Of a DNA stretch of 64,000 nucleotides, positions 11,332 to 57,824 are shown in pieces. The notes below the pieces were generated by a model. That model was not told the DNA's origin and made no database searches. It worked only from the letters and a program-made list of their open reading frames with translations. The stretch is from a virus: the IMG/VR virus record IMGVR_UViG_3300045988_105534; one strand, given 5' to 3'. Positions within the stretch are counted from its first letter, which is position 1. Every line of letters starts with the position of its first letter. The translations under genes and the position numbers were made by a program.

Positions 11332-11424
11332 ATACAAATTAATATAGGTAACTAGGACACTTATGGAAAATTCCAGAGTGTCTTTTTTAATACAAATTTT
11401 TACATAAGAAAGGTGGAATTAATT

Positions 11425-12777
11425 ATGAATCTAAACGAAATGGAAATCCCTTGCGATCCAATTTTGGACAAAGCAAAGAGGGATGAGTTGGTGCAGAACA
11501 CAGAACTTTTAAAACAGGTTACAATCAAGCCGATCCCGTGGCTTCCTGGACGAGATTATATTACTACAGAACAGGTAGCACGATTCTTTGATGGAAATGT
11601 TGACGAGGTTAAGAGGTTGTGTACGAAGTATCGCAAAGAGTTTTTAGACGATGGAATGGAAGTTAAGACAGTACAAGAGATCATTGACGGTCAGGACGCA
11701 ACAACGGAAAAACAGAAGGGAAGAATCATGGTAACGTATCCGAACGGATTGAATATCTCATTCGGCTATAAGGGTGCTAAGGTGTTTACTCTTAAATGTT
11801 TGATCAGGTTATCTTTACTAATGGAAACTTCAAAACTTGCCGAGAGCGTGAGGTATTATGTTTTCATTAATGATTATATCACGATAGAAGAGCAGAGAGA
11901 ACAAGAGCAGGTAGAGGCAGGTGTGCAGCTTGTAGACACAACGGAAATTTTAGGTAGAAGAATTGACTTATACAGAAGCATTGAAGATCCGTTATTCTTG
12001 GCAAGAGATGTTGCAGAATGGATTGATTATAGTAAACGTCCTGATGGAAGTTATAAAACAGATATGATGTTACAGGTGATTGATTCAGAGGAAAAATATA
12101 AGACCAAAATCTTAACCGCCAATAATGTTGGCGGGTCAAATTTAGGTCAGATTGATTCTACGGGAAAGACTATTAATCCATTTTGGTTTCTGACAGAAGA
12201 TGGACTCTATGAAGTGTGTATGCAGTCACGCAAGCCGATTGCAAAACAGATGAAGAAACAGATCAAAGAATACCTTAGAAACATCCGTAAGACAGGCGGT
12301 GCAGTTGACTTTGGAAAAGAATCACAGTTTATTGAACACTATTTTCCATCATTCTCTGAAGATGTCAAGCTTGCAATGGTAACGGATCTGAGAACACAAA
12401 ACAAGGAACTCAAAGAAGAAAATCAGAAGCTACAGAATGATAATAAGCTATTAGCAGCGGAAATTTTGACGTGGGATGATCGCAATAAGATGAACGCTGG
12501 TATTAGGAAATTAGCTGCGGTTACAGGAACACAGTTCTCTGTTATGTGGAACGAGCTGTATAAGAACTTACAGTATAAATATCAGATTGATGTTAAGAAA
12601 CGTGGAAAGAAACCATTTCTACAGTGGATTCAAGAACATGAATGGGATAAGGTACTGAAAGTCTTTTGTGCAATGTGTGAAGCTAGAAACCTATCTCCAA
12701 CAGATATGTTCCAACAGACGGCACCTGTGGAAAATTTATATGATAATGAAGATGAGGATGATGAAGTATGGAATTAG
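11425..12777 (+). CDS. Phage antirepressor-like protein (ORF6N/KilA-N-like N-terminal, ORF6C-like C-terminal)
   Basis: 450 aa. The central RRIDLYRSIEDPLFLARDVAEWIDYS...NPFWFLTEDGLYEVCMQSRKPIAKQ segment resembles ORF6N / Bro-N-type domains. Confidence 0.5.
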   Translation: MNLNEMEIPCDPILDKAKRDELVQNTELLKQVTIKPIPWLPGRDYITTEQVARFFDGNVDEVKRLCTKYRKEFLDDGMEVKTVQEIIDGQDATTEKQKGRIMVTYPNGLNISFGYKGAKVFTLKCLIRLSLLMETSKLAESVRYYVFINDYITIEEQREQEQVEAGVQLVDTTEILGRRIDLYRSIEDPLFLARDVAEWIDYSKRPDGSYKTDMMLQVIDSEEKYKTKILTANNVGGSNLGQIDSTGKTINPFWFLTEDGLYEVCMQSRKPIAKQMKKQIKEYLRNIRKTGGAVDFGKESQFIEHYFPSFSEDVKLAMVTDLRTQNKELKEENQKLQNDNKLLAAEILTWDDRNKMNAGIRKLAAVTGTQFSVMWNELYKNLQYKYQIDVKKRGKKPFLQWIQEHEWDKVLKVFCAMCEARNLSPTDMFQQTAPVENLYDNEDEDDEVWN

Positions 12778-13335: not shown

Positions 13336-14430
13336 ATGAACCTACAGTTAGTAAAAACGGAAAATTTTAATGATATAGCGTGTGATTTTTATAGTGCCGA
13401 GGACGATATTTGGATGACAAGAAAGCAGATCGGAGAGGCACTGGAATATGGAGATCCACAGAAAGCAATTGATAATTTGCACAATAGATATAGAGATAGA
13501 CTGAATAAATATTCAGTTACCCTCAAACTGGGGGCTACTGATAACAAGAAGTATGACACTACACTCTATAATGAACGTGGCGTGATGGAAATTTGTAGAT
13601 GGAGCAGACAGCCAAAGGCAAACGCCTTCATGGATTGGGTTTGGGACGTGATTTCCTCTTATCGTCATGGAAATTTAAGAACAGGAACTCCCGTAACAAC
13701 AGTGGAGCAATTTCTTACAGAACAGACAGAACTTATGAGGCAGATGGAAAGAAACAATGAACGCTTATACAATGTTACTATCAAAGGTTTCAATCAGTTG
13801 GCAGACATTGTAAAAGAGATGAAAGCCGAACGGAAAGAATTATATAAGCAGATTGGCAAGTCTACGAAAGATATTCCAGTAATGGATACGGAAAATGTTA
13901 TTGCAGAATACAAACTTAATGAATGGAAATCCAAGGTGTATTCTATCATTAATGATATTCTAAAAGAATCTGATGAACTAGGAACAACTACTAGAGATAT
14001 TCTTAAAGAAACATACAGGTATCTTACCAACACATATGGAATTGTGTGGGAACAGGATCGGAAAGAATATAAAGAGAAGTATAATATTAGCGAAAGAGGT
14101 AATGTACCAACGATTGATCTTTGCTATGACAAGTACCCTGATCTGCTAATCAATTCATTGGAAAAACTTCTGCGACAGTTCCGCAAAGAAAATGCACAGC
14201 CTGATTGGGAAGAAATGAAAATTAAGATTACTAATTATGCTAATCATATTGGAAATAAATCTAAAGGCGGAACGTCTGTGTATCGGAAAATCTACACTAA
14301 GATGACAGAGAATGGAGTTAACTGGGATGAATATGCTCATGGGCTATCTAAATCCCAGCTTATTAAAACAAATGCAACTTTGTACAACAGATTTTACGAA
14401 GCAGCGGTGGAAATTATTTCAGAAGAATAG
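13336..14430 (+). CDS. Bro-N domain antirepressor-like protein
   Basis: N-terminus LQLVKTENFNDIACDFYSAEDDIWMTRKQIGEALEYGDPQKAI...ERGVMEICRWSRQPKANAFMDWVWD matches the Bro-N pattern. Confidence 0.7.
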   Translation: MNLQLVKTENFNDIACDFYSAEDDIWMTRKQIGEALEYGDPQKAIDNLHNRYRDRLNKYSVTLKLGATDNKKYDTTLYNERGVMEICRWSRQPKANAFMDWVWDVISSYRHGNLRTGTPVTTVEQFLTEQTELMRQMERNNERLYNVTIKGFNQLADIVKEMKAERKELYKQIGKSTKDIPVMDTENVIAEYKLNEWKSKVYSIINDILKESDELGTTTRDILKETYRYLTNTYGIVWEQDRKEYKEKYNISERGNVPTIDLCYDKYPDLLINSLEKLLRQFRKENAQPDWEEMKIKITNYANHIGNKSKGGTSVYRKIYTKMTENGVNWDEYAHGLSKSQLIKTNATLYNRFYEAAVEIISEE

Positions 14431-19731: not shown

Positions 19732-20682
19732 ATGGCAGCAACACAGTTTGAAGTTATTGAAACAGTAAACAATAATAACGCAGAAGAATCTGAAACAAAG
19801 ATTAAAAGACGCAAGGACGGAAGTCCTAAATGGACTCGATCTAACAAACGGAAAGGCGTATCATCTTTAGTGTATCCGATTAAGAACAGAGAAAAATTTG
19901 CAGCCTTTAATGCATATTTTAGAGATCAGATTGATAAATCATATACAGAGTACAAACGATATGTAGCTGCTAGAAATAATCTTTTGGTTGCAGTTGGAAA
20001 TAATACAGCGTATCGTATTTCTGATATTGTTAGACTTAAATGGGGTGATTTATTAGACGATAAGACTCGTAAGCAGGAAAAGAAAACAAAGAAATTCAGA
20101 ACTGTATACTTTAACGATTTGGTAACTGAAGCAGTGGATATTTTCTTTGAAGCTGTTGCAGGAACTAAATATGATGTCAAGATTGATGGCAAAGTGCCAA
20201 TGGATGATTATGTTTTCGGAACATGTAAGTCTGGATCAGGGCATATGACTGAAGCAAATGCTTTGGATTTTGTTAAAAAAGGTGCTAAGGCAGTTGGAAT
20301 TGAGGATAACATTGGTACACATACATTGCGAAAAAACTTTGTATACTGGACACTTGTTGATCATAAGGATGATCAGAATGTATTGTATACACTTATGAGA
20401 TTACTGAATCATAGTAGTCCTGCAATGACGTTTTTATATGCTACAATTACAGAAGAGGAAACACATGTATTGTTCGATGATATTGCTCAGACGTATAAGG
20501 ATATTATCAGCGGAGTATTTAACGGATTAAAGGAAAATGTTATTAATGTGAGTTATGATAGAGTAATAGAGATTATCAAGTGTGCTTATGAGACAGGGAA
20601 AGATGATGCAGATAAAGATGATGGAGTACATGAGGATAATATGCAAGCATTAAAAGAATTACTGGAAGGAGTTATTTTATGA
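19732..20682 (+). CDS. Tyrosine site-specific recombinase (small integrase/Xer-like)
   Basis: Arg box AYRISDIVRLKWGDL; HxxR in GTHTLRKNFVYW; His-Tyr box LLNHSSPAMTFLYAT. Confidence 0.7.
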   Translation: MAATQFEVIETVNNNNAEESETKIKRRKDGSPKWTRSNKRKGVSSLVYPIKNREKFAAFNAYFRDQIDKSYTEYKRYVAARNNLLVAVGNNTAYRISDIVRLKWGDLLDDKTRKQEKKTKKFRTVYFNDLVTEAVDIFFEAVAGTKYDVKIDGKVPMDDYVFGTCKSGSGHMTEANALDFVKKGAKAVGIEDNIGTHTLRKNFVYWTLVDHKDDQNVLYTLMRLLNHSSPAMTFLYATITEEETHVLFDDIAQTYKDIISGVFNGLKENVINVSYDRVIEIIKCAYETGKDDADKDDGVHEDNMQALKELLEGVIL

Positions 20683-22367: not shown

Positions 22368-22381
22368 AAATGGAGAATATT

Positions 22382-23398
22382 ATGAATAATAAAGAATTGA
22401 TACAAAATTATATAGATTCTTACGTATCAGAATCACGTCGCCCAACATGGAATTGGTTATTAGATTCTGATATTGCGGACGACAATGAATCTGGGTTAAC
22501 GTATGCACCAGGTACAATCCAAGAGGCTATATTATCAGATACTAGAGGTAAAAAAACCAAAAGTATGAATTCTATTAAAAAAAGATATGACCAGCTTGTT
22601 AAACTATATACTTATGCATATGAACAAAATTACATTAAATATAATCCATTTGTTAATGATAAATTTATAAACTTGCAATTAGCAGTTGATATATATTTTT
22701 CAAATAGAGTTAACGTTAATTATGTTACACCAGATAAAATAAATGCGTTTATTTCGAATCTGATGTCGTGCAATGCATCAGCCGATACCAAATTGAATAC
22801 TAGATTTCACATTGTGAGTTTATATAATGGGATAAATGGAAAGGAGTTAAGAAATCTAAAATTCTCAGATATTAATCAAAATGATTTGACAATTTTTGGG
22901 AAACCAGTCTCCAAAGATTTTATCGAGACATTGAATGAATATAAATTGAAAATGGGAGATACGAATATATATGATGATTTTGTATTAATACCACGAAAAA
23001 AATGTAATAATATAGAAGAATATCAAGCAGAGCAAAAGAGGATATATAATAATGTGCAGTCTCAATTAGAATTAACTGGTAACACTTTATCTTATGAGAA
23101 ATTGACAACCATTGATGTTATTAATTCTGGTTTTATACAATATTTAAAATCTAAAATGGATATCAAGGCAATTGCAGATTTATATTATATTAAATCAAAA
23201 GAAGGAATCGCACGATCTTTAATCGCACGTCAATTTAGTGAAATTGCAATTGAATTTTATTATAATTATTATATATCATATAGATTAAAAAAGAAACAAT
23301 TTAGTGATCGTCAAACTGTAATTGGTAAAACTATTGGTTATCTATATAAAGATGAGGACTATAAGAATTATCGTGTACATCAAATTATGACAGAATAA
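22382..23398 (+). CDS. Hypothetical protein (338 aa)
   Basis: Long ORF with a weak Shine-Dalgarno (GGAGAA); no motif recognised. Confidence 0.5.
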   Translation: MNNKELIQNYIDSYVSESRRPTWNWLLDSDIADDNESGLTYAPGTIQEAILSDTRGKKTKSMNSIKKRYDQLVKLYTYAYEQNYIKYNPFVNDKFINLQLAVDIYFSNRVNVNYVTPDKINAFISNLMSCNASADTKLNTRFHIVSLYNGINGKELRNLKFSDINQNDLTIFGKPVSKDFIETLNEYKLKMGDTNIYDDFVLIPRKKCNNIEEYQAEQKRIYNNVQSQLELTGNTLSYEKLTTIDVINSGFIQYLKSKMDIKAIADLYYIKSKEGIARSLIARQFSEIAIEFYYNYYISYRLKKKQFSDRQTVIGKTIGYLYKDEDYKNYRVHQIMTE

Positions 23399-24705: not shown

Positions 24706-25530
24706 ATGACAGAAGAAAAGGATATTGTAAATGAAGGATTAAACACATTAGTATTTAGCAATGATAAATTTGGGAATATCCGCACAGCGGTCTTAGATAA
24801 TAATCCGTGGTTTGTTGGCAAAGATGTTGCTGAATGTTTAGAGTACAAAAATACAAAAGACGCTCTTGCAAGACATGTAGATGCCGAAGACAAACAATTA
24901 ATCCTAAGGTCGCAAATCACGACCTTAGAAAATGTACCAAACAGAGGACTCACATTTATTAATGAGTCAGGACTTTATGCATTAATCTTTGGAAGTAAGC
25001 TTGATAAGGCAAAAGAATTCAAGCATTGGGTAACATCAGAAGTTCTTCCGCAGATTCGTAAGACGGGCGGATATATTCCAATTGAAAAAGATGATGATGA
25101 TTTAACTATCATGGCGAAAGCATTGAATATTATGCAAAACACTTTGGAGCAAAAGGATGAACTATTAGCCCAGAAAGAAGAAGTTATCAGTAAACAGAAG
25201 CCACTTGTTGATTTTGCTAATACGGTCAGTGCCACACCAACAATGGTTGATATGAAAACAATGGCAAAGCTTCTTGAGAAAGAGAATCAAGATATTCATA
25301 TGGGCAGAAACAAATTATTTGCGTGGTTAAGAAAAGAAGGGTATCTCATGTCAGATAATACCCCATATGAAAGATATGTTAAGCAGGGCATTTTCAAATT
25401 AACAGAAAGTGAAGTTGAAACTAAGAATGGAAACAAGTTGATTACCAAAACATATGTGACTGGCAAAGGGCAATTATACTTGGCAAAGAAATTAGCACAA
25501 TACTTTGCCTCACAGAGTGCATCAGCTTAG
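24706..25530 (+). CDS. Phage antirepressor (Bro-N N-terminal domain, KilA-C-like C-terminal domain)
   Basis: LVFSNDKFGNIRTAVLDNNPWFVGKDVAECLEYKNTKDALARHVD...GLYALIF is a canonical Bro-N domain; TAGGAGGT Shine-Dalgarno. Confidence 0.8.
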   Translation: MTEEKDIVNEGLNTLVFSNDKFGNIRTAVLDNNPWFVGKDVAECLEYKNTKDALARHVDAEDKQLILRSQITTLENVPNRGLTFINESGLYALIFGSKLDKAKEFKHWVTSEVLPQIRKTGGYIPIEKDDDDLTIMAKALNIMQNTLEQKDELLAQKEEVISKQKPLVDFANTVSATPTMVDMKTMAKLLEKENQDIHMGRNKLFAWLRKEGYLMSDNTPYERYVKQGIFKLTESEVETKNGNKLITKTYVTGKGQLYLAKKLAQYFASQSASA

Positions 25531-26870: not shown

Positions 26871-28940
26871 ATGTGTACACCAATGAATGAAAACTGGAGT
26901 AACTTTTTAAGCAAATTGTCAGAGCATTTAAATAAAATGCTCGACTATGTAGAGAAAAACAATTCTACATTGTATGAAACCGACATTGATAAGGATGAAC
27001 TTTGGGAAGTATATCTGAGTAGTTTTCCTGAAGGAACCAATAAGATGTATCGCAAGCGACGAGAATATGATTGTGGGCATTGCCGAAACTTCATTAAAAC
27101 AATCGGTGGAGCTGTGGCAATTGTTGATGGCAAGATTCATACGATCTGGGAGATTGATACCGATGACGTAGTATTTCAGCCAGTAGTTGATGCTTTACGA
27201 ACATATGTAGAATCAAAACCGATCAAAGACATTTGGAGACATTTTACAAATACAGTTGGTACAAAAACGACAAATGAGTATACAGAAGATAAGCAGATTA
27301 TCAAATGGACTCATATGTATACACCGATTCCAGAGAGATTACTGGAAAAGAAATCTGATATTCCTACAGCGAAAGCAAAAGTGAGGGATCGAAAGAATGT
27401 GTTCAAAAGATCACTTGATGAAATCACAGAAGAAGCTGTTGATACAGTGTTAGAGCTGATCGCTTCAAATACTCTTTACAGAGGACAGGAATGGGAAAGA
27501 GTATTAAAAGATTTTAGAAAATATCAGCGAGAATACAACGGTTTGTCTGATGTAGAAAAAGATACATACACATGGACAAAAGCCATGACGATCGGAGATG
27601 TAATTGGTCGTATTAGAAACCATAGTATCGGTACATTACTTGTGAATATCAGCGAAGGTATGGATTTAGATAATGCAGTAAAAGCTTATGAAAATGTTGT
27701 AGCTCCTGCAAATTACAAACGACCAAAGGCAATTTTTACAAAGAAAATGCTTGAGGATGCAAAGAAAACTGTAACCGATTTAGGATATATGGATTCATTA
27801 CAGCGTAGATTTGCAAGACTTGATGATATTACAGTAAACAATATTCTGTTTTGTAATCGTGATGCAGCACCACGTATTCAGGGTGGCTTAGATATTTTTG
27901 ACGAGATGAGCAAGGAAGTCGCTGTAAATCCTAAGAAATTTTCTAAAGTAGAAGAGATCAGTGCAGAGAAATTTGTATCAGATGTTCTACCAACAGCAAA
28001 AGAATTAGAAGTTCTGTTTGAAAATCGTCACAAGAAGAACATGGTCTCACTGATCGCACCTGTAAACAAAGATGCTAAGAATATGATGAAGTGGAGCAAT
28101 CCTTTCAGTTGGGTGTACTCAGGAAATATGACAGATAGTGAAATGAAAGAACGAGTTAAGAACGCAGGCGGAGCAGTTGATGGAGTCTTAAGATTTTCAA
28201 TTCAGTGGAACGCAGGAAAAGATTGGAATAGGGATGATTTTGATGCACATTGTAAAACACCTTGTCACCATATTTTCTTTGGACAGATGCTTGATCATAA
28301 AACACGAGGCAGACTTGATGTTGATGTGATTAATCCAGTAAAAGGCGAACCTGCCGTAGAGAATATCACATGGGCAGACAAAACCCAGATGGTTGATGGA
28401 GATTATGAATTTTTCGTACGCAATTATTGCCATAACAACGGTACATCAGGATTTACAGCAGAGATTGAGTTTGATGGTCAGATTTATGAATTTGAATACG
28501 ACAAACCTTTAAAACAGGGACAGAACGTACCAGTGGCTACAGTTACATTAAAAGATGGAGTGTTCACAATCAAAGAGAAACTTCCATCAACAACATCTTC
28601 AAGAGAAATCTGGGGCATCAATACAAATCAGTTTGTGCCAGTAACAGTAATGTGTTATTCCCCTAACTATTGGGACGAACAGACAGGTATTGGACATAAA
28701 CATTATCTGTTTATGTTAAACGGATGTGTAAATGATGATACTCCAAATGGATTTTTCAATGAGTTTTTGAAGCAGGAATTAGTACAGCACAAGAGAGTAT
28801 TCGAGGCTTTAGGAAGTAAGATGCATGTCGCAGATGATCCAAACCAGTTATCAGGAATTGGTTTCAGTTCTACAAAACGAGATGGTGTGATCGTCAAAGT
28901 CAAAGGTGCAACAGAAAGAGTTCTTAAAATTAAATTTTAA
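26871..28940 (+). CDS. Hypothetical large protein (689 aa)
   Basis: AAAGGAGA Shine-Dalgarno; YDCGHCRNF Cys motif; no confident family. Confidence 0.6.
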   Translation: MCTPMNENWSNFLSKLSEHLNKMLDYVEKNNSTLYETDIDKDELWEVYLSSFPEGTNKMYRKRREYDCGHCRNFIKTIGGAVAIVDGKIHTIWEIDTDDVVFQPVVDALRTYVESKPIKDIWRHFTNTVGTKTTNEYTEDKQIIKWTHMYTPIPERLLEKKSDIPTAKAKVRDRKNVFKRSLDEITEEAVDTVLELIASNTLYRGQEWERVLKDFRKYQREYNGLSDVEKDTYTWTKAMTIGDVIGRIRNHSIGTLLVNISEGMDLDNAVKAYENVVAPANYKRPKAIFTKKMLEDAKKTVTDLGYMDSLQRRFARLDDITVNNILFCNRDAAPRIQGGLDIFDEMSKEVAVNPKKFSKVEEISAEKFVSDVLPTAKELEVLFENRHKKNMVSLIAPVNKDAKNMMKWSNPFSWVYSGNMTDSEMKERVKNAGGAVDGVLRFSIQWNAGKDWNRDDFDAHCKTPCHHIFFGQMLDHKTRGRLDVDVINPVKGEPAVENITWADKTQMVDGDYEFFVRNYCHNNGTSGFTAEIEFDGQIYEFEYDKPLKQGQNVPVATVTLKDGVFTIKEKLPSTTSSREIWGINTNQFVPVTVMCYSPNYWDEQTGIGHKHYLFMLNGCVNDDTPNGFFNEFLKQELVQHKRVFEALGSKMHVADDPNQLSGIGFSSTKRDGVIVKVKGATERVLKIKF

Positions 28941-29904: not shown

Positions 29905-30867
29905 ATGAGACAGATTACAGACACACATACAGGAGAAATTATCTCCGATACAGATTTAACATTAGAATACTTATTCGTTGGTGATTATGGCAAGAAAAAC
30001 AACATTAAGGCAGATTTTCTTGGGTATGATAAACGAATTGAAAAAGTTGAACATAAACCAGTTGATATTAGAGAAAAATTAGTTGTGACTGTTTCGTCAC
30101 AGAAAGGTTGCCCGATGCATTGCAATTTCTGTGATTGCCCTAAACTTGGATTTAAAGGAAACGCATCGTTGCCAGAGTTAATGATGGAGATCACTTCTGG
30201 AATTGCTTTATCAGGAATCAGACATGGAGAACGATTAAATGTACATTATGCAAGAATGGGAGAGCCTACATTTAATCAAAATGTAATTGCTTCGGCTAAA
30301 CAGATTGCACATATGTTAGCAGATCCAGACAGTGATATACATTTCAACACATATCATCCAGTAATTTCTACAATGATGCCAAAGGCAAATAATAATTTAA
30401 AAGAATTTTTACATAAATGGGTTAAAACTGGATTTGAATATGGTGAAGAAGATGGCTTTGGTCTTCAGTTCTCTATCAATACTCTTAATGAAGAACAAAG
30501 AAATGAAATGTTTCGAGGATGTTCATTATCTTTAACAGAGATCGGAGGCATTATTGATTGGTTACCAATGCCAAAGAAGCGTAAGTATACATTGAATTTT
30601 GCTGTTACATCCAAAAGTAATTTAGACGTAGATTTGATGAACAAGTATTTCGATAAGGAAAAATGCATTGTCAAGATTACTCCTATCCATGAAACAGTTG
30701 AAGCAGTTGACGAAGGATATGAGATTGTAACAGATTTTGATGTATATGAAAAATTTGAACAACCACTTGTAAAAGACGGTTGGGATGTAATTGTATTTGT
30801 TCCATCGAAAGAAGAAGACGCAGATAGAATTACATGTGGAAATTCATTAATTGCATTAGGAAATTAA
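29905..30867 (+). CDS. Radical SAM enzyme, RlmN/Cfr-like (putative RNA or DNA C-methylating enzyme)
   Basis: VSSQKGCPMHCNFCDC is a CX3CX2C cluster in RlmN-style VSSQ.GC context. RMGEPT is a glycine-rich SAM motif. C-terminal ITCGNSL resembles the RlmN AACGQL catalytic Cys motif. Confidence 0.6.
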   Translation: MRQITDTHTGEIISDTDLTLEYLFVGDYGKKNNIKADFLGYDKRIEKVEHKPVDIREKLVVTVSSQKGCPMHCNFCDCPKLGFKGNASLPELMMEITSGIALSGIRHGERLNVHYARMGEPTFNQNVIASAKQIAHMLADPDSDIHFNTYHPVISTMMPKANNNLKEFLHKWVKTGFEYGEEDGFGLQFSINTLNEEQRNEMFRGCSLSLTEIGGIIDWLPMPKKRKYTLNFAVTSKSNLDVDLMNKYFDKEKCIVKITPIHETVEAVDEGYEIVTDFDVYEKFEQPLVKDGWDVIVFVPSKEEDADRITCGNSLIALGN

Positions 30868-31285: not shown

Positions 31286-32746
31286 ATGATTGAAGTAATT
31301 GGAACAGTGGTACCAGTGGTTATTGCGGTAGGTGGCGTAGGAGCTATTATCGGTAGCGGTTATGTCAAAGCAAGTCCAGATAAAGCTTATATTATTTCTG
31401 GACTTAGAAAGACACCTAAGACATTAATTGGTAAGGCAGGGTTAAAAATCCCATTCTTTGAAAAAGCAGATCATCTTAATCTTGAGTTAATTCCAATTGA
31501 TGTTAAGACATCAAGTTCTGTGCCTACAGCAGATTATATCAATATCAATGTAGATGCAGCGGTCAATGTAAAGGTTAGCAGTAATCCAGAAAGATTAAAA
31601 CTTGCAGCAGAAAACTTCTTAAATAAGCCAGTAGGCGATATTGGACAGGTCGCAAGAGAAGTCCTTGAAGGTAATATGCGAGAGATCGTTGGAAAGATGA
31701 GCCTCGAAGAAATGGTTTCTGATCGTCAGAAATTTGCACAGCTTGTTACAGAAAATGCGAAGCCAGACCTTGCTGCAATGGGACTAGATATCATCAGTTT
31801 TAATGTGCAGAATTTTATGGATGATAATGATGTTATTGAAAATCTTGGTGTAGATAATGTTGTTAAAATTCAGAAGAAGGCTGCAATTTCCAGAGCTGAA
31901 AGCGAAAGAGATATTGAAAAAGCAAAAGCAATGGCTGAAAAAGAAGCGAATGATGCAAGGGTTGAGTCAGAAACAGCGATCGCAGAAAAGAATAACAATC
32001 TGGAAATTAAAAAATCTGAACTTGAGAAGATTTCAAAAGCAAAGAAGGCTGAGGCAGATGCAGCATACAAGATCCAGGAAGAAAAATCACGTAAAGAAAT
32101 TGAAATTGTAACTGCGGATGCTAATATTATGCGGCAGGAAAAAGAAATTGAACTGAAACGTAAAGACGTTGAGGTAACAGAGCAGACATTAGATGCACAG
32201 ATCAAGAAACAGGCAGAGGCTGAAAGATATGCCTCTCAGCAGAAAGCAGATGCAGATTTATATAAGAGACAGAAAGAGTCAGAAGCTAATAAATATGCTA
32301 AAGAAAAAGAAGCTGAATCTACAAAATATGCTATGGAGCAGGAAGCTGAAGGTATTCGTGCAAAGGGTGTAGCAGAAGCCGAGGCAATCAAAGCTAAAGG
32401 TATTGCTGAAGCAGAAGCAATCGAAAAGAAAGCAGAAGCCATGAAACAGATGGGTAAAGCATCTATTGTAGAAATGATGTGTCAGATGTTCCCAGAGGCA
32501 GTTAAAAATGCAGCCGCACCATTAGGAAATGTAGGAAGTATCACTATGTATGGAGAAGGAAACACAACAAAATTAACAAAAGATATTATGAATGTTGTGA
32601 ATCAGGTATCAGATGGTGTTAAAGGATCTACAGGTGTTGATCTTGCAAAGATGTTAAAAGATTTTGTTTCTGAAGATAACGAAGTAGAATCTACAGATAA
32701 TGTTGGTCAGCCAGAAGTATATTCAGACGATTATCGTGAGTTCTAA
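31286..32746 (+). CDS. Flotillin-like SPFH/Band-7 family membrane protein
   Basis: N-terminal transmembrane helix, then an SPFH domain, then a long E/A-rich coiled coil (AEAEAIKAKGIAEAEAIEKKAEA) and a C-terminal flotillin tail. 486 aa. Confidence 0.85.
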   Translation: MIEVIGTVVPVVIAVGGVGAIIGSGYVKASPDKAYIISGLRKTPKTLIGKAGLKIPFFEKADHLNLELIPIDVKTSSSVPTADYININVDAAVNVKVSSNPERLKLAAENFLNKPVGDIGQVAREVLEGNMREIVGKMSLEEMVSDRQKFAQLVTENAKPDLAAMGLDIISFNVQNFMDDNDVIENLGVDNVVKIQKKAAISRAESERDIEKAKAMAEKEANDARVESETAIAEKNNNLEIKKSELEKISKAKKAEADAAYKIQEEKSRKEIEIVTADANIMRQEKEIELKRKDVEVTEQTLDAQIKKQAEAERYASQQKADADLYKRQKESEANKYAKEKEAESTKYAMEQEAEGIRAKGVAEAEAIKAKGIAEAEAIEKKAEAMKQMGKASIVEMMCQMFPEAVKNAAAPLGNVGSITMYGEGNTTKLTKDIMNVVNQVSDGVKGSTGVDLAKMLKDFVSEDNEVESTDNVGQPEVYSDDYREF

Positions 32747-32760
32747 TAGGAGAAATTATT

Positions 32761-33495
32761 ATGACAATTATTATTATTTGTGTAATTATAGCGATTATCG
32801 CATATTTGCAATTTACTAAAAATGGAAAACAGATTAAAAATGTGGCATCTGGAACAGTTACAGAGAAAATCAAAGAAAATGCAATGACTCCAGAGGGAGC
32901 AAGAGCCAGATATAATACTGCAATTAAAGACAAGCAGGACTTCTACCAGAAAACAATGGGTACATACACAATGGTAGCTGGTCGATTGGCAACAATGGAA
33001 GATGACCTCAAAGAAACAAAAGAAGAAATTTCTAAAACCGAGGTAATGATCAACCAGTATCTTGATAACAATGATGATAAAAAAGCAATGTATTATGCTC
33101 AAAAATTAGCCACGTTAAAGGCACAAAAATCAGTGTACGAAAAGAAGATCCCAGAGTTGCAAGCAACAAAAGATAAGCAAGAAGAAATTAAAAACCAAGC
33201 ATATGATCAGCTTATTAAACTAAAAGGCGAAAAAGACACTGTAGTTCTCCAGATGGATGCAGATCAGCAGATTGCAGAATTGCAGAAAAATTTAGATCAA
33301 TACAATAGTTCAAATGCTGCTCAGGAAGGTTTGGAAGAGGTTCGAGAAGGAGCAAAGAAACTTAGCGAACAAGCCAAAGGCGTTGCTATTGCGTATGAAT
33401 CTAGTGCAGAAACATTGGATTATCATATGGAACAAGAAGAGCGACAGCAAGAAGCTAAAGCCATATTAGATCAGATGAAAAATGCTCGCAAATAA
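32761..33495 (+). CDS. Membrane-anchored coiled-coil protein, PspA/IM30-like (tentative)
   Basis: N-terminal transmembrane helix followed by about 200 aa of heptad-rich coiled coil. Adjacent to the flotillin gene, as in PspA-SPFH operons. Weak assignment. Confidence 0.35.
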   Translation: MTIIIICVIIAIIAYLQFTKNGKQIKNVASGTVTEKIKENAMTPEGARARYNTAIKDKQDFYQKTMGTYTMVAGRLATMEDDLKETKEEISKTEVMINQYLDNNDDKKAMYYAQKLATLKAQKSVYEKKIPELQATKDKQEEIKNQAYDQLIKLKGEKDTVVLQMDADQQIAELQKNLDQYNSSNAAQEGLEEVREGAKKLSEQAKGVAIAYESSAETLDYHMEQEERQQEAKAILDQMKNARK

Positions 33496-33625: not shown

Positions 33626-33763
33626 GGAAACATAGCTCAGTTGGTAGAGCAGGCAATACATAAACATTCATTTTTCTACCTCCATATAAGTATTTTTATT
33701 TATTTACATTTAATTTTCATCACATATAAATTGCCGACACAGGTTCGATTCCTGTTGTTTCCA
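33626..33763 (+). tRNA. tRNA gene (anticodon loop reads UACAUAA, so CAU-like for Met or Ile2) interrupted by a ~67-nt AT-rich insertion next to the anticodon loop
   Basis: Acceptor GGAAACA/TGTTTCC is perfect. D-arm GCTC-AGTTGGTA-GAGC. Anticodon stem GGCAA/TTGCC. T-arm ACAGG-TTCGATT-CCTGT. Discriminator A. 74 nt lie between the anticodon stem halves. Confidence 0.6.
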
Positions 33764-33803: not shown

Positions 33804-34007
33804 TTAATCGTTTGGTATGACCTCGATAACATCTTCAACTTTGCAATCAAGATATAAGCAAATTTTGTCAATGTTTTCGAGACTGATATACTGATTCTTT
33901 GCCATCTTGGCAATTGTACCAGACCCCATATTTAAAGCGGTTCGTAAATCAGATTTTGTCATACCCTTTTTCGCTAAAGTTACGAAAAGCGGTTTATAAC
34001 TTATCAT
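33804..34007 (-). CDS. XRE-family HTH transcriptional regulator (67 aa)
   Basis: MISYKPLFVTLAKKGMTKSDLRTALNMGSGTIAKMAKNQYISLENIDKICLYLDCKVEDV. GGAGGT Shine-Dalgarno 7 nt before the ATG at 34007. The track ORF was extended upstream. Confidence 0.8.
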   Translation of the reverse strand: MISYKPLFVTLAKKGMTKSDLRTALNMGSGTIAKMAKNQYISLENIDKICLYLDCKVEDVIEVIPND

Positions 34008-34028
34008 ATGATATACCTCCACATCTAT

Positions 34029-34057
34029 ATTGTAACATATTATATACAGGATGTAAA
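34029..34057 (-). promoter_or_regulatory. Leftward promoter for the XRE regulator (TTTACA-17-TACAAT on the minus strand)
   Basis: Read from the reverse complement of 34029-34057. Confidence 0.5.
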
Positions 34058-34088
34058 ATAAAATATTCAATAAGTTGAAGATTTTGTA

Positions 34089-34117
34089 TTGACACTATGT
34101 GCAATAAGTGGTATATT
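34089..34117 (+). promoter_or_regulatory. Rightward consensus promoter TTGACA-17-TATATT, divergent from the XRE gene
   Basis: TTGACA at 34089-94 and TATATT at 34112-17. Confidence 0.65.
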
Positions 34118-34173: not shown

Positions 34174-34581
34174 ATGTCAAATAAAATTTACAGATATTAT
34201 CAACCAAACGATAAAGATACAAAAGACAATCATTCAGATTGCGTGATCAGAGCATTAACAAAAGTGCTTGATAAAGAATGGTTAACAACATTTGATGATT
34301 TGTTACCATACGCAAGGGATATGCAGTGTATGCCATCAGAGCGAAAATGTTACGAAGAATATTTATTCGATAATGGGTTTGCTTATCAAGGTATTAGCAA
34401 CCGAAAAGGATCTAAACGACCAACAGTTGAAAGTTTTGCAAAAGATCATAAACAAGGCAATTACTTGGTAAATGTTGCGAATCATGTAGTTGCAATTTCA
34501 GACGGTTGTTATTACGACACATGGGATTCTGGAGATTGTTGCTTGTATGGATATTACTATAAGGAAGAAGGAGAGAAATAA
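34174..34581 (+). CDS. Hypothetical protein with conserved Cys/His pair (possible papain-like amidase or peptidase fold)
   Basis: NHSDCVIRAL ... NHVVAISDGCYYDTWDSG; GAAGGAGTGAG Shine-Dalgarno. Confidence 0.55.
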   Translation: MSNKIYRYYQPNDKDTKDNHSDCVIRALTKVLDKEWLTTFDDLLPYARDMQCMPSERKCYEEYLFDNGFAYQGISNRKGSKRPTVESFAKDHKQGNYLVNVANHVVAISDGCYYDTWDSGDCCLYGYYYKEEGEK

Positions 34582-54968: not shown

Positions 54969-56562
54969 CATTTTGAACGATTGCAGAGGACTTTTTGAAG
55001 ATGAGGTATTTGAAATTATCATGCAGGAGCGTGGTATTGACGATCCAGAACATTTTCTAAATCCTACGGAAGATGATTTACTTTCTCTTGATGACTTAAA
55101 AAATATTGATAAAGCATACAGACTCGTGATGAGTGCGGTGAATGAAGATAAACGTATTGCAGTACATTTTGATACAGATACTGACGGCATCACATCTGGT
55201 GCCGTTATGACACGATATTTAAAAAACATGACAGAAAATCCAGTAGATGTATACATTAACCGAGGCAAACAGCATGGATTAGCAAATCAGGACATTGCTA
55301 AGTTTTATGGGTATGATTTACTGATTGTCGTTGATAGTTTGGATAAAGACGAGACTCAGTATAAGGATTTAAAAGAAACAGGAGTTGATGTGATTGTGTT
55401 AGACCACCATGCCATCGATCCAGATGTTCCTTATGACAACTATTGCACATTAGTTTCTTCTCAGAGAGAATATGAAAATCCACAGTTATCTGGTGCAGGT
55501 GTTGTCTGGAAGTTTTGCAAGTATATTGATGAGCAGAATGGTACAGATTATGCAGATAATTTGGTCGATCTAGCAGGCGTTGGGCTGATTGCAGATATGA
55601 TGGATATGAGAGTAATGGAGAATCGTTACATTGTATCCGAAGCTTTGAAAGAAATTAGAAATCCTGCGATTAAGAAGATTATTGGTGGATTTGAATTCAA
55701 CAGCACAGCAGTTGCTTTTAGTATTGCACCGTTGGTTAATGCTGCAAACAGAATGGATCAGAATGAAATTGCTCTAAATGCTTTCCTTGAAGATGACAAT
55801 AAAAAGTTACGAGGATATATTAAACAATTAAAGCAATGCAAAGAAGACCAAAATGAAGAGGTCGCACAGCTGATGCCAATGATTGCGGAACAGTGTGAAG
55901 CTCAGAGTGATAAAAAGATGATCACAACTTTTATCGACACTGATTATGGTATTTCTGGGTTAATTGGAAACAAATTGCTTGAAAAATACCAGAAGCCGAT
56001 TCTTGTGCTAAAGAAAAATGAAGATACATATGCAGGATCTATGAGAGCAGTTGGTGTAAAAGACTTCCGACAGATGTGTAATAACAGTCAGTTGGCTGAA
56101 GCAAATGGACATGAACTTGCCAGTGGTATTGAAATTCCTAGAAAGAACTTTGCTGAGTTCACCTCTTATATAGAAGAAACTCTTCCAGATAAGCCAGAAG
56201 ATACAACAGTTGATGTCGATATTATGCTTGATATTTCAGACATCACAAGAAAAATGGTTGACATGATTAAGAAAATTGATCGTATTTCTGGGCAAGGATT
56301 TAAACCTGTAAGAGTTTATATTGAAGAGATTGACGACTATGACATTGGTCAGATGAGCAATTATAAACATCTTGTCCTGAAACCATGTAACAATGATAAA
56401 TTGTGGATCATTAAATGGAACTATGATGGATCGTTTGAGGATATGGAAGACCATTCTATGATGAATGATGAGTTTTGTGCAGTTACTACACTTGATTGCG
56501 GATTCTTTGGAAGAAAGTTTGTGCTGAAAGCTGTGTGTGATTCACTTGAAGAGGTGGGATGA
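54943..56562 (+). CDS. RecJ-like DHH-family single-stranded DNA exonuclease (start uncertain; alternative ATG at 55021)
   Basis: AVHFDTDTDGITSGAV and VLDHHAID are DHH motifs; RecJ-like linker; 513-539 aa. Confidence 0.7.
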   Translation: MKTSKKKYNILNDCRGLFEDEVFEIIMQERGIDDPEHFLNPTEDDLLSLDDLKNIDKAYRLVMSAVNEDKRIAVHFDTDTDGITSGAVMTRYLKNMTENPVDVYINRGKQHGLANQDIAKFYGYDLLIVVDSLDKDETQYKDLKETGVDVIVLDHHAIDPDVPYDNYCTLVSSQREYENPQLSGAGVVWKFCKYIDEQNGTDYADNLVDLAGVGLIADMMDMRVMENRYIVSEALKEIRNPAIKKIIGGFEFNSTAVAFSIAPLVNAANRMDQNEIALNAFLEDDNKKLRGYIKQLKQCKEDQNEEVAQLMPMIAEQCEAQSDKKMITTFIDTDYGISGLIGNKLLEKYQKPILVLKKNEDTYAGSMRAVGVKDFRQMCNNSQLAEANGHELASGIEIPRKNFAEFTSYIEETLPDKPEDTTVDVDIMLDISDITRKMVDMIKKIDRISGQGFKPVRVYIEEIDDYDIGQMSNYKHLVLKPCNNDKLWIIKWNYDGSFEDMEDHSMMNDEFCAVTTLDCGFFGRKFVLKAVCDSLEEVG

Positions 56563-57824
56563 TTATGGCAGGAAAAGAAGTATTTTGTTCAGTCTGCGGT
56601 TTATCATCTACTTTGGACGGACATTTTTGGAAAGAAAAGAAGTTGTGCAACAGACACAATATGCAGTTAGAAAAACATGGAAAACTGTTAGATAAAGATA
56701 TAGTGATCCCTAAAAAGAGACATAGATGGACTCCAGAAGAAGAAGTCAGATTAGAAGAGTTGTATAAACAAGGAGTTTCTTTTGAAAAAATTAGTAAACA
56801 AATGAATCTATCCGTGGCAGCCATAGCGGCTCGAAGTCGTCATTTGAATCTTGGCAATAAGTATATGAGGTCTAATAATCCTAATTTTAAAGCCACATAT
56901 CAGGATTATGATTGGTGTTATGAAAGATATGTTGTTAAGGGAATGACTCATCAAGAAATGGCAGATGAATGTGGTGTCTCGTTAAGAGTTATTCAGAAAT
57001 GGTGTTCTGAAGTTCATAAATTAAATTGTTGGACTTTCAAAAACAATAAGACATTAACCGATAAACAGTATCAAATTATTTTATTTGGCACATTAGGGGA
57101 TGGGCATATTGATAAAAGAGAGACGCAACCTTTGTATATTGAATGTCATTCTATAGCAGAAAAGGATTACGTGTTTTGGAAATATGAAGAATTAAAAGAT
57201 TTATGTAACTCTGAGCCAAAGTATTATGAAGGTGGCTATAAAGATTTTGGTTCTGGTACAAAGTATTGGTGTAAACCACATTACAGATTTGAGACAAGAA
57301 TTATTAATCAATTGAAGGACATTCGAGACATGCCAAGAATCAATAAGATTTGGCAATTGAATGAATTTGGATTATCTCTTCATTGCTTAGACGATGGATG
57401 CAGAGGTAAATCAGCGTGGGAATTATGTTTGGCAGAATATACTCAGCAAGAAATTGATTTATATATCAAGCTGTGTAAAAAGAGATTTGGGTTATATGCT
57501 AAACAGCAGACAGATAAAAGATATATAAGATTTGATTCAGATTCAAGTAGAATTATTGATCAAATTATTTTAAACAATATTCCTAATTCGCTTGACATTA
57601 TCAAAAAGAAGATATTAGAAAACGATAAAATTTCTAAAAAAGTAAGATACATTTATGTTGTCATGCAGAACGGAGAACAGATTGGTTTATCTACATATTG
57701 TAGATCTCATGGTATTCCATATGAAAAGACAAGAAAATATGTCATTGAGCACAATATCTCTCGAATTCAAGAAGCTGATCTACTAAATAGATTAAAAGCT
57801 GGAGGATTAATGAATGCGGTATAA
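56559..57824 (+). CDS. Free-standing LAGLIDADG-family homing endonuclease with N-terminal zinc-ribbon/HTH region
   Basis: Two LAGLIDADG-like motifs, ILFGTLGDGHI and LHCLDDGCRGKS; N-terminal CSVCG...CNRH and an HTH-like RWTPEEEVRLEELYKQGVSFEKIS. Confidence 0.6.
   Translation: MIMAGKEVFCSVCGLSSTLDGHFWKEKKLCNRHNMQLEKHGKLLDKDIVIPKKRHRWTPEEEVRLEELYKQGVSFEKISKQMNLSVAAIAARSRHLNLGNKYMRSNNPNFKATYQDYDWCYERYVVKGMTHQEMADECGVSLRVIQKWCSEVHKLNCWTFKNNKTLTDKQYQIILFGTLGDGHIDKRETQPLYIECHSIAEKDYVFWKYEELKDLCNSEPKYYEGGYKDFGSGTKYWCKPHYRFETRIINQLKDIRDMPRINKIWQLNEFGLSLHCLDDGCRGKSAWELCLAEYTQQEIDLYIKLCKKRFGLYAKQQTDKRYIRFDSDSSRIIDQIILNNIPNSLDIIKKKILENDKISKKVRYIYVVMQNGEQIGLSTYCRSHGIPYEKTRKYVIEHNISRIQEADLLNRLKAGGLMNAV

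Follow-up and report, generated by a model that had tools for sequence, protein, structure and literature searches.

PspA/IM30 proteins are known for membrane sealing and remodeling. In Bacillus subtilis, an SPFH protein is needed to put PspA on the membrane (PMC8581546). Bacterial PspA has further been linked to proteins that combine a transmembrane segment, band-7 and flotillin, and PspA/Snf7 homologues with a transmembrane segment are found in ABC and PBPB-OmpA operons (PMC11237479). In phages, a pspA-like gene beside terD is already known from gut jumbo (“Jug”) phages, in which the terD region is reported to be highly transcribed (PMC12880540, 2026). Phage-borne TerD, TerF-vWA, and TelA have also been proposed to build sub-membrane structures directed against superinfecting phages (Iyer et al. 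2021, PMC7824862).

We analyzed a 64-kb window (the whole stretch of DNA presented above) in which a flotillin gene is followed by a gene for a membrane-anchored PspA-like protein. The two ORFs are 14 nt apart and each has an AGGAG ribosome-binding site; with no terminator in between, this short gap and the site on each gene suggest that the pair is transcribed as one unit. The features of the locus are listed in Table 1.

Table 1. Features of the flotillin/PspA-like locus and its flanks (positions in the window)
Feature	Position	Strand	Remarks
Radical-SAM protein, 320 aa, phrog_24834	29905..30867	+	Pfam Radical_SAM 3.7e-4; phrog_24834 3e-80
PM0253-family protein, 110 aa	30888..31220	+	Left border of the variable cargo slot, conserved
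Flotillin, 486 aa	31286..32746	+	N-terminal membrane anchor, SPFH/Band_7, EA-rich coiled coil, Flot C-terminal domain
Membrane-anchored PspA/IM30-like protein, 244 aa, PHROG 33389	32761..33495	+	TM helix, linker motif, helical hairpin (predicted)
tRNA-like gene	33626..33763	+	Rfam RF00005, 46.4 bits; ~66-nt AT-rich insert in anticodon arm
Cro/C1-type HTH regulator, called as 67-88 aa	33804..34070	-	Pfam HTH_26 3e-14
Divergent sigma70-like promoter pair	34029..34117	both	Between the HTH gene and the + gene 34174-34581; consensus matches only

Comparison with related phages revealed that what stays constant at this locus is the PspA-like gene, a phage element, and that flotillin is one of several interchangeable partners. 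Near-identical siblings hold genes for a Ca-type P-type ATPase, a vWA-TerF protein, and TerD in the flotillin slot, and one sibling phage has the PspA-like gene alone with no partner. Below, flotillin marks variant A, the Ca-ATPase/vWA-TerF/TerD set variant B, and the lack of a partner variant C. The backbone around the swapped cassette is otherwise 86–100% identical among siblings. Partner and PspA-like allele switch together between them, the allele being 95–100% identical where it accompanies flotillin and 74% identical in the cassette with ATPase, vWA-TerF, and TerD. More distant phages carry either ATPase/TerD or an ABC transporter and an NMT1-OmpA protein with the PspA-like gene (the latter including Bacillus phage G gp243-250), and these two sets, the first with vWA-TerF, are its usual partners. 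TerD, TerF-vWA, TerC, and TelA were absent from the window itself and occurred only in sibling or distant phages at the equivalent position.

The genes bordering the slot are shared among the variants. The PM0253-family gene adjoins the cargo in all three variants with 86–95% identity and, as the conserved left flank, was assigned to the backbone rather than to the module. The HTH gene, the sole clear minus-strand gene nearby, forms the conserved right flank in variants A, B, and C. The position of the radical-SAM gene, just upstream, is a second variable cargo slot, where many siblings carry NAD-salvage genes (isochorismatase, NAPRTase, and NAD synthase in six of them).

Downstream of the pair, the tRNA-like gene is, judged by its Rfam match, real yet aberrant. 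The match to RF00005 covers model positions 1–71 with 81 nt replacing 15, and the cloverleaf folds; ARAGORN missed the gene. Each of the 45 copies found across the window and related loci has the insert, with a total length of 134–142 nt. A mini-ORF on the minus strand of the insert, with a GGAGG site, was rejected as a gene, since neither its frame nor its length is maintained from variant to variant. The transcription unit ends with the tRNA-like gene, after which comes a hairpin-like sequence. In a 5.7-kb scan, the divergent pair beside the HTH gene gave the two best matches to a promoter (plus strand, TTGACA-17-TATATT, 11/12; minus strand, TTTACA-17-TACAAT, 10/12; both with TG). The initial annotation had described a tRNA and a repressor switch after the pair; the HTH_26 gene with its divergent promoters and the Rfam match bear this out, with the reservation that the tRNA is aberrant. 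Its description of the pair as a moron fared less well. Because the same scan found no promoter-like site of at least 10/12 matches upstream of flotillin and the pair sits at the end of a long same-strand gene array, we do not regard it as a classical moron.

The first gene of the pair is, on the evidence of domain and structure searches, a flotillin that is FloT-like, though not a strict FloT equivalog. The Band_7 domain (PF01145) was matched with E=7.8e-24 (85.1 bits against a gathering cut-off of 23.6), and the match to the Flot domain (PF15975) was marginal (27.7 bits against a cut-off of 27, E=3.2e-6). Residues 29–455 aligned to the solved structures of human flotillin-1 (E=5e-54) and flotillin-2 (1e-48) in a PDB search. 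The NCBIfam FloT match spans the entire profile at 298.5 bits, short of the equivalog cut-off of 700 bits. Direct inspection located a hydrophobic stretch, VIGTVVPVVIAVGGVGAIIGSGYV, at residues 4–27 as the N-terminal membrane anchor, as well as the repeat AEAEAIKAKGIAEAEAIEKKAEAMK. These results agree with the original description of this ORF as a flotillin with a transmembrane helix, SPFH domain, EA coiled coil, and flotillin tail. The usual but not obligatory partner gene NfeD/YuaF was not found beside it, and the PM0253-family and PspA-like neighbors gave no NfeD match.

The presence in siblings of a calcium pump and TerD in place of flotillin makes the pair look like a swappable membrane-protection kit, a function that we put forward as a proposal, and the swap with Ca-type ATPase, vWA-TerF, and TerD points to a common task, namely membrane leak and ion (Ca2+) influx. 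Our preferred reading, to which we give about even confidence, is that the pair keeps the membrane of the infected cell sealed and energized. The analysis establishes what the two proteins are, that they reside in phages, the cassette exchange, the host source of the flotillin, and the purifying selection; polymerization, the interaction of the two proteins, expression timing, and the protective phenotype are what we infer. The PspA-like protein would be the core, polymerizing on the cytoplasmic face of the membrane and thereby sealing or stiffening the stressed bilayer. It would sit permanently at this face because a true transmembrane anchor replaces the amphipathic helix. Flotillin, presumably co-transcribed with it, would most likely be a scaffold that concentrates or organizes the PspA-like polymer, as YdjI does for PspA in B. 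subtilis. Together they would hold the membrane tight and energized until the phage is ready for lysis. Candidate threats are damage during DNA entry, superinfecting phages, membrane-attacking abortive-infection effectors, and the phage's own membrane proteins. Membrane stabilization, lysis timing, and exclusion, the functions listed in the initial annotation, are likewise hypotheses. A search of PADLOC-DB with the pair and six neighboring proteins gave no match at E≤0.01.

The alternative that survives best, although we still consider it unlikely, is superinfection exclusion or inter-phage competition, in which a sub-membrane layer of PspA-like protein and flotillin would block DNA entry by later phages (or colicin-like agents). 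The sibling phages hold TerD and vWA-TerF in the same slot, and phage Ter components are the very proteins proposed to form sub-membrane structures against superinfecting phages (PMC7824862). The module also adjoins an HTH regulator with divergent promoters. However, receptor or channel blocking is not what PspA/IM30 proteins are known for, and the module has no strong promoter-like site of its own, as would be expected of an exclusion gene expressed in lysogeny. Exclusion overlaps with the membrane-repair reading because the same structure would be involved, with a different beneficiary.

An extended form of the repair reading, which we regard as doubtful, would see in large phages a dedicated, transmembrane-anchored ESCRT-III/PspA repair machine whose “front ends” are interchangeable. 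It would be the viral equivalent of ESCRT-III repair triggered by Ca2+, directed against membrane-permeabilizing abortive-infection effectors or rival phages. The front ends would then be the flotillin scaffold; the Ca2+ pump with Ca2+-binding TerD and the copine-like vWA-TerF; and the ABC transporter with a peptidoglycan-binding protein.

A role in lysis timing seems improbable. PspA preserves the proton-motive force under membrane stress and holins are triggered when this force collapses, so that a pair sustaining it could delay premature holin triggering and lengthen the latent period; both proteins are indeed predicted at the cytoplasmic face of the membrane. However, the neighborhood consists of cargo and regulatory genes and includes no holin or endolysin gene, and it is not obvious how replacement by a Ca pump and TerD would relate to the control of holins.

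A further alternative is that the 244-aa protein is a generic membrane-anchored coiled coil (spanin-like or a scaffold) with a compositional resemblance to PspA, which we judge very improbable. Taken alone, the protein scored 17.9 bits (E=0.0024) against PF04012, below the gathering score of 33.9, and PDB searches with the single sequence or a 7-sequence profile gave nothing meaningful. This weak match nevertheless spans profile positions 29–217 of 220, and PF04012 was matched at E≤0.01 by 58 of 97 family members (best, 6.6e-13), against at most 5 members for any other family. The 97-member profile did reach Vipp1/PspA, which provided its best four PDB matches (6zvr, 8qbr, and others; 1e-6 to 2e-6); query residues 46–205 aligned in register with chain residues 27–187 over 160 residues, whereas generic coiled coils entered the match list only from ~3e-4. 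AlphaFold2 predicted helices at residues 44–102, 106–183, and 185–243; past the linker these would form a putative ESCRT-III-type helical hairpin (pLDDT of the hairpin above 90) followed by C-terminal helices. Foldseek ranks 1–4 and 6–10 were Vipp1/PspA, aligned full-length. The ABC and PBPB-OmpA context of relatives likewise fits the bacterial PspA/Snf7 homologues with a transmembrane segment.

The membrane topology of the protein is also distinctive. A single-pass transmembrane helix (residues 3–18) is followed by a conserved DAxTPEGA..YN.AI linker motif, and the Lys-rich region past the helix predicts, by the positive-inside rule, that the helical body lies in the cytoplasm, unlike the coiled coil of a spanin. 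This predicted topology, together with homology to PspA and a neighborhood free of lysis genes, led us to reject the spanin-like reading. The amphipathic helix alpha0, which mediates peripheral membrane binding, is absent from the protein, the Vipp1 alignment beginning at alpha1, and a hydrophobic transmembrane helix takes its place in 98 of 102 full-length relatives. The family, comprising 233 representative clusters, can thus be described from profiles and predicted structures as a divergent membrane-anchored clade of PspA/IM30/Vipp1, clear at the family level, and among the contexts examined it appears to be mainly phage-borne. The annotators' reading of the second gene as a transmembrane helix plus about 200 aa of PspA-like coiled coil is therefore upheld by the 97-member profile and the PF04012 matches.

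A large gut phage (~160 kb), whose host is probably an Erysipelotrichaceae-like Firmicutes, carries the pair as accessory cargo. The same arrangement with phage flanks was found in ~38 independent IMG/VR contigs of 80–166 kb, in addition to many ENA and Logan assemblies, which answers the suggestion that homologous pairs be sought in other phage genomes. Replication genes typed by PHROG lie in the window. Both genes are under purifying selection, with a median dN/dS of 0.065 for flotillin (among 22 phage alleles) and 0.095 for the PspA-like gene. A search with a 7-member alignment of the PspA-like gene returned 55 IMG/VR viral loci and 3 “genome” loci, at least one of the latter with phage-like flanks; such an alignment favors close relatives, and these counts are no fair census of phages versus bacteria. 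That the pair is host DNA, whether through chimeric assembly, a host flank, or a functionless decaying passenger, is extremely improbable: a bacterial gene matches the flotillin at 71% identity, and two GenBank “Bacteriophage sp.” scaffolds that encode related flotillins have a bacterial look, but the gene order and phage flanks recur across these independent contigs and assemblies, the ORFs are intact and constrained, and GC content and GC skew run through the pair without a break from the remainder of the window. The pair is thus phage-borne, as had been assumed from the start. A source label of Caudoviricetes sp. also counts toward phage residence.

The flotillin nevertheless has a bacterial origin. 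It shares 71% identity over 445 aa with a flotillin of Longibaculum muris, at a locus with PadR-HAAS upstream and no PspA-like gene. On sequence comparison, it is a recent capture from the bacterial host, inserted beside a PspA-like gene that the phage already had. The initial annotation had instead suggested an imported bacterial SPFH-PspA operon of the pspA-ydjGHI type; given the host-derived flotillin, the Longibaculum locus, and the phage-resident PspA-like gene, the pair is no such imported envelope-stress operon. A related 121-kb phage carries a second flotillin that is only 39% identical, suggesting repeated capture. Two further ideas were discarded. Capture of a host block including the radical-SAM gene was rejected, as the phage gene upstream is unrelated to the radical-SAM gene after the Longibaculum flotillin. 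The GenBank “Bacteriophage sp.” entries MT836322 and MT839823 (flotillins 51–53% identical) were not accepted as independent phage cases, given their bacterial housekeeping neighbors and no PspA-like gene.

Many abortive-infection effectors permeabilize the membrane, and phage entry and holins damage it too. Counter-measures to DNA-targeting, nucleotide-based, and NAD-based defenses are well known; to our knowledge, hardly any phage counter-measures to membrane attack have been described. If our proposal is true, a phage-encoded and permanently anchored homologue of PspA/ESCRT-III that many large phages conserve alongside exchangeable partners would offer a concrete, testable candidate for a counter-measure of this kind, or else for exclusion at the membrane. 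PHROG 33389 and Bacillus phage G gp247 would thereby acquire a function, as would the phage SPFH/flotillin and TerD genes that have been noted repeatedly but left unexplained. The natural variants with flotillin, Ca-ATPase/TerD, or no partner in near-identical backbones offer a ready comparison set.

Among known systems, Bacillus phage G gp247 is a full-length homologue of the PspA-like protein (25% identity over 91%) of the same PHROG-type family. Its neighbors (gp243, gp245, gp246, gp249, and gp250) are an ABC permease, an ABC ATPase, a ~190-aa conserved protein, and two OmpA-domain proteins; the latter are 45–56% identical to an NMT1-OmpA protein, and the locus has no flotillin. The “Jug” phages share with the relatives of this phage, siblings included, a PspA-like gene beside TerD and a Ca-type P-type ATPase, a likeness drawn by gene content only. 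They are, however, 360–402-kb Bacteroides phages, and their description (PMC12880540) includes no flotillin partner, transmembrane anchor, or cassette swap.

Compared with FloT/YuaG, which usually occurs with NfeD/YuaF, the phage flotillin shares the anchor, SPFH domain, EA coiled coil, and Flot tail but is phage-encoded, falls below the equivalog cut-off, and has no NfeD/YuaF partner. The 244-aa protein resembles PspA/IM30/Vipp1/LiaH from alpha1 to alpha4/5, in register with Vipp1, in its predicted helical hairpin and in its best structural neighbors. It differs in having a transmembrane helix and DAxTPEGA linker in place of alpha0, in its ~15% identity, and in its score below the Pfam gathering threshold.

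The closest parallel is B. subtilis pspA-ydjGHI/samGHI, in which a PspA/ESCRT-III homologue likewise lies beside an SPFH-family gene. YdjG/YdjH-type membrane recruiters and a dependent YdjI-type SPFH protein were not found among the neighbors of the phage pair. Whereas YdjI relies on YdjG/H for the membrane, the phage SPFH protein is a classical membrane-anchored FloT-type flotillin, and the phage PspA-like protein, unlike B. subtilis PspA, would need no recruiting because it has its own transmembrane anchor. The gene order is reversed and the phage pair was assembled from separate sources, but it probably follows the same logic.

The first ORF of the pair is identified by homology as a flotillin, in agreement with the initial annotation. 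It matches Band_7 in Pfam (E=7.8e-24), its Flot domain barely exceeds the Pfam cut-off, and the solved structures of human flotillin-1 (E=5e-54) and flotillin-2 (E=1e-48) align to residues 29-455. The NCBIfam FloT model is covered end to end at 298 bits, below the strict equivalog cut-off of 700, and the translation, read directly, shows a hydrophobic N-terminus and an AEAEA-type repeat. The PspA-like ORF follows on the same strand after 14 nt, and an AGGAG ribosome-binding site precedes each ORF.

The second gene had been described as encoding a transmembrane helix and about 200 aa of PspA-like coiled coil, and this description held. The N-terminal transmembrane helix spans residues 3-18 and is followed by lysines, so the rest of the protein, made up of ~200 residues of helix, is predicted to face the cytoplasm. 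Searched alone, the window protein matches PF04012 below the cut-off (E=0.0024, 17.9 bits against 33.9), with the match still covering positions 29-217 of the 220-position profile; the PDB gave no match to this sequence alone or to a profile built from 7 sequences. In a profile search, 1.84 billion representative proteins yielded a discrete family (233 clusters, ~245 aa each) in which an N-terminal hydrophobic helix is present in 98 of 102 full-length members and a DAxTPEGA..YN.AI motif is conserved between the membrane anchor and the coiled coil. With the profile of a 97-member alignment of this family (A3), the four top PDB matches were Vipp1/PspA chains (E=1e-6 to 2e-6), aligned in register from helix alpha1 to about alpha4 (query 46-205 to chain 27-187), and designed or generic coiled coils entered the ranking only from ~3e-4. 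Individually, 58 of the 97 members matched PF04012 (best 6.6e-13), and no other Pfam family was matched by more than five. An AlphaFold2 model (mean pLDDT 74) contains a confident long hairpin (44-102 and 106-183); Foldseek ranks 1-4 and 6-10 were Vipp1/PspA with near full-length alignments, the best E-value being only 8e-3. Mainly on the A3 PDB search and the PF04012 matches, we assign the 244-aa protein to a divergent clade of the PspA/IM30 (bacterial ESCRT-III) superfamily.

The pair is phage-borne. Almost all substantial window ORFs lie on the + strand, GC content (~33%) and GC skew are uniform, and PHROG-matched genes encode a DnaB-like helicase, a primase, a RecJ-like exonuclease, a 1054-aa DNA polymerase, an ExoV/Dda-like helicase, a sliding-clamp-like protein, several Ant-like proteins and two tyrosine-recombinase-like proteins. 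The neighbours of the pair likewise belong to PHROGs, and the flotillin is labelled 'Caudoviricetes sp.' in one source. We recovered 55 IMG/VR loci with the PspA-like protein, many of them on 140-166-kb contigs, pointing to a genome of ~160-166 kb. Within the lineage, purifying selection acts on the two genes: median pairwise dN/dS is 0.065 over 22 flotillin alleles and 0.095 over 33 alleles of the PspA-like gene. The phage replication genes, the PHROG neighbours, the recovered loci, the uniform GC and the purifying selection therefore led us to reject host DNA or a chimera as the source, and the initial reading of the pair as phage cargo stands. Elsewhere in the window, between the RecJ-like exonuclease and DNA polymerase genes, an ORF with PHROG matches to HNH/LAGLIDADG homing-endonuclease-like and D5-like regulator proteins may be a mobile endonuclease insertion.

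We used tblastn to compare the slot between the PM0253-family gene and the tRNA-like gene across 58 related loci, and then extended this comparison. The backbone flanks are kept at 86-100% identity (PM0253-family gene on the left; tRNA-like gene, HTH gene and a 135-aa gene on the right), and between them the slot has three states, listed in the table; the homologous pair recurs in state A. In state B, the ATPase/vWA-TerF-like/TerD set occupies the exact flotillin position of the window. Here the partners and the PspA-like allele were exchanged together within nearly identical flanks, and this joint exchange argues for a match between each PspA-like allele and its own partner set. Flotillin is a swappable partner of the PspA-like protein.

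In every one of the more distant phages (PspA-like proteins 33-43% identical), the PspA-like gene is preceded by the ATPase gene, by one to three TerD genes, or by both. The same ATPase/TerD/PspA-like cassette was found at three GTDB 'genome' loci, the species-representative MAG contigs L072, L073 and L074. The last (JAFQBM010000040.1, a 378-kb contig of a 'Lachnospiraceae' MAG) has phage-type flanks (PNK/RNA ligase, NAD-dependent ligase, sigma factor and NMNAT) and is probably a huge phage binned as a bacterium. In a third context, an ABC permease, an ABC ATPase and a conserved ~190-200-aa protein precede the PspA-like gene and an NMT1-OmpA protein follows it, with one or two OmpA-type proteins after the PspA-like gene in L007, L009 and L076. 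Bacillus phage G gp247 is 25% identical to the PspA-like protein over 91% of the query, and the gp246-like ~190-200-aa protein had no Pfam match.

Coordinates of features in the window and at compared loci
Feature	Locus	Position	Strand	Description
Flotillin	window	31286-32746	+	486 aa
PspA-like protein	window	32761-33495	+	244 aa, N-terminal transmembrane helix
tRNA-like gene	window	33626-33763	+	Rfam tRNA 46.4 bits
Cro/C1-type HTH regulator with divergent sigma70-like promoter pair	window	33804-34117	-	Sole clear minus-strand gene in region examined; switch-like
Radical-SAM gene	window	29905-30867	+	phrog_24834
DUF8224 gene	window	26871-28940	+	689 aa; phrog_1735, E=4e-261
Tyrosine-recombinase-like genes	window	19732-20682, 22370-23398		Two genes
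Ant-like genes	window	11413-12777, 13336-14430, 24706-25530		Three genes
Homing-endonuclease-like ORF	window	56559-57824	+
State A	~38 loci			Flotillin + PspA-like protein, 95-100% identical to window
State B	L048-L055	1882-5937 (partner set)		Ca-type P-type ATPase, vWA-TerF-like, TerD; PspA-like allele only 74% identical
State C	L041			PspA-like protein alone, directly 3' of PM0253
NAD set, second slot	L001	4041-8125
NAD set, second slot	L013-L016	5938-9600
NAD set, second slot	L041	1904-5605
Ca-type P-type ATPase, vWA-TerF-like (copine-like), 1-3 TerD	L075	1830-5998		Distant phage; immediately before PspA-like
Ca-type P-type ATPase, vWA-TerF-like (copine-like), 1-3 TerD	L004	5444-10000		Distant phage; immediately before PspA-like
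Third context	L007, Bacillus phage G	171533-178618		gp243-gp250
Third context	L009	1469-5528		38-kb gut phage scaffold; ABC ATPase not seen in stretch examined
Third context	L076	2345-6912		14-kb metagenome contig; NMT1/solute-binding and OmpA by Pfam

The closest non-phage relatives of the phage flotillin are from Longibaculum muris, Coprobacillus and Lachnospiraceae (~63-71% identity; 71% over 445 aa for Longibaculum), which hints at an Erysipelotrichaceae-like host. At the Longibaculum locus, a PadR-HAAS pair and a small ORF lie 5' of flotillin and a radical-SAM gene lies 3'. Because this locus has no PspA-like gene and its radical-SAM gene is unrelated to that of the window, flotillin was, on this comparison, captured alone and put beside an already resident PspA-like gene; the earlier proposal of a bacterial SPFH-PspA operon carried as a unit is not upheld. 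Flotillin capture by phages recurs, since a related 121-kb gut phage (L008) carries a different flotillin (39% identical, without a PspA-like neighbour) and flotillin-family genes are also annotated in one crAss-like phage and one Vibrio phage. In L008, a DUF8224 gene directly follows the flotillin; this gene also adjoins the cargo region in the window phage and in more distant large gut phages. Two 'UNVERIFIED Bacteriophage sp.' faecal scaffolds, L077 (MT836322.1) and L078 (MT839823.1), with flotillins 51-53% identical to that of the window, were rejected as phage examples: their neighbours, judged from translations, resemble housekeeping genes of bacteria (lgt-like, YbaK-like, GreA-like, glycoside hydrolases), and both are probably bacterial DNA.

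The pair closes a long + strand array, with the tRNA-like gene and then a hairpin-like sequence on its 3' side, and a promoter scan found no promoter-like site with at least 10 of 12 matches 5' of flotillin. Because it stands at the end of this array and no such site was found before it, the pair is cargo in a variable hotspot and not a self-contained moron, although a moron had initially been suggested. The repressor switch said to follow is represented by the HTH gene. Between this gene and the next + strand gene lie the two best-matching sigma70-like sites, arranged divergently, which is switch-like by sequence. The tRNA said to follow the pair is real by Rfam, and its folding shows normal acceptor, D and T arms with an anticodon stem of 6 bp, but ARAGORN did not detect the gene, a ~66-nt AT-rich insert lies within the anticodon arm, and no anticodon is assignable. 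All 45 copies of the gene found in the window and related loci (134-142 nt in total) carry the insert and none is uninterrupted; its length falls far short of that of a group I intron.

Cargo also varies in a second slot just 5' of the pair, filled in the window by a radical-SAM gene whose product has weak RlmN/Cfr-like similarity around a CxxxCxxC motif. In many siblings, this slot holds genes for an isochorismatase (nicotinamidase-like), a 278-aa protein, NAPRTase and NAD synthase. This set resembles an NAD-salvage cassette, a type that has been linked to counter-defence; PMC11662467 concerns NAD-pathway genes of gut jumbo phages.

Both proteins of the pair are predicted to lie at the membrane, on its cytoplasmic side. 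If the analogy with PspA/Vipp1 holds, polymers of the anchored PspA-like protein would form on membrane under stress, sealing it and keeping it energised, and flotillin, by analogy with B. subtilis YdjI, would organise or concentrate this assembly. Its alternative partners are a Ca2+ pump, a Ca2+-binding TerD protein and a copine-like vWA-TerF protein, which would point to ion leak as the shared problem. We consider the chances evenly balanced that the pair maintains membrane integrity. One candidate benefit would be protection of the productive infection, be it from damage at entry, from abortive-infection effectors that attack the membrane, or from holins firing early; the other would be the exclusion of rival phages, which parallels the proposal of Iyer et al. 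for phage Ter genes (PMC7824862). As the primary role, exclusion appears unlikely, and a role in lysis timing is more improbable still. None of the PADLOC models matched. Natural slot variants in near-identical backbones would make the function of the pair directly testable.

In bacteria, PspA is already known with SPFH partners (PMC8581546), and some of its homologues carry a transmembrane segment (PMC11237479); SPFH genes have been noted in phages, for a reason called unclear there (PMC13239085). In gut jumbo phages, a pspA-like gene has been reported beside terD, in a terD region described as highly transcribed (PMC12880540). Our literature search turned up no phage described as carrying a flotillin/PspA-like pair, no account of the cassette swap, and none that treats the anchored PspA-like clade as an element conserved in phages. 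According to Ravi et al., bacterial PspA/Snf7 homologues with a transmembrane segment occur in the same ABC/OmpA context as the third phage context (PMC11237479). PspA of B. subtilis requires the SPFH protein YdjI for its placement on the membrane (PMC8581546); the phage pair likewise joins an SPFH protein to a PspA homologue, and the putative role of its flotillin is modelled on YdjI. In contrast to PspA/IM30, the phage clade has a transmembrane anchor in place of the amphipathic helix alpha0.
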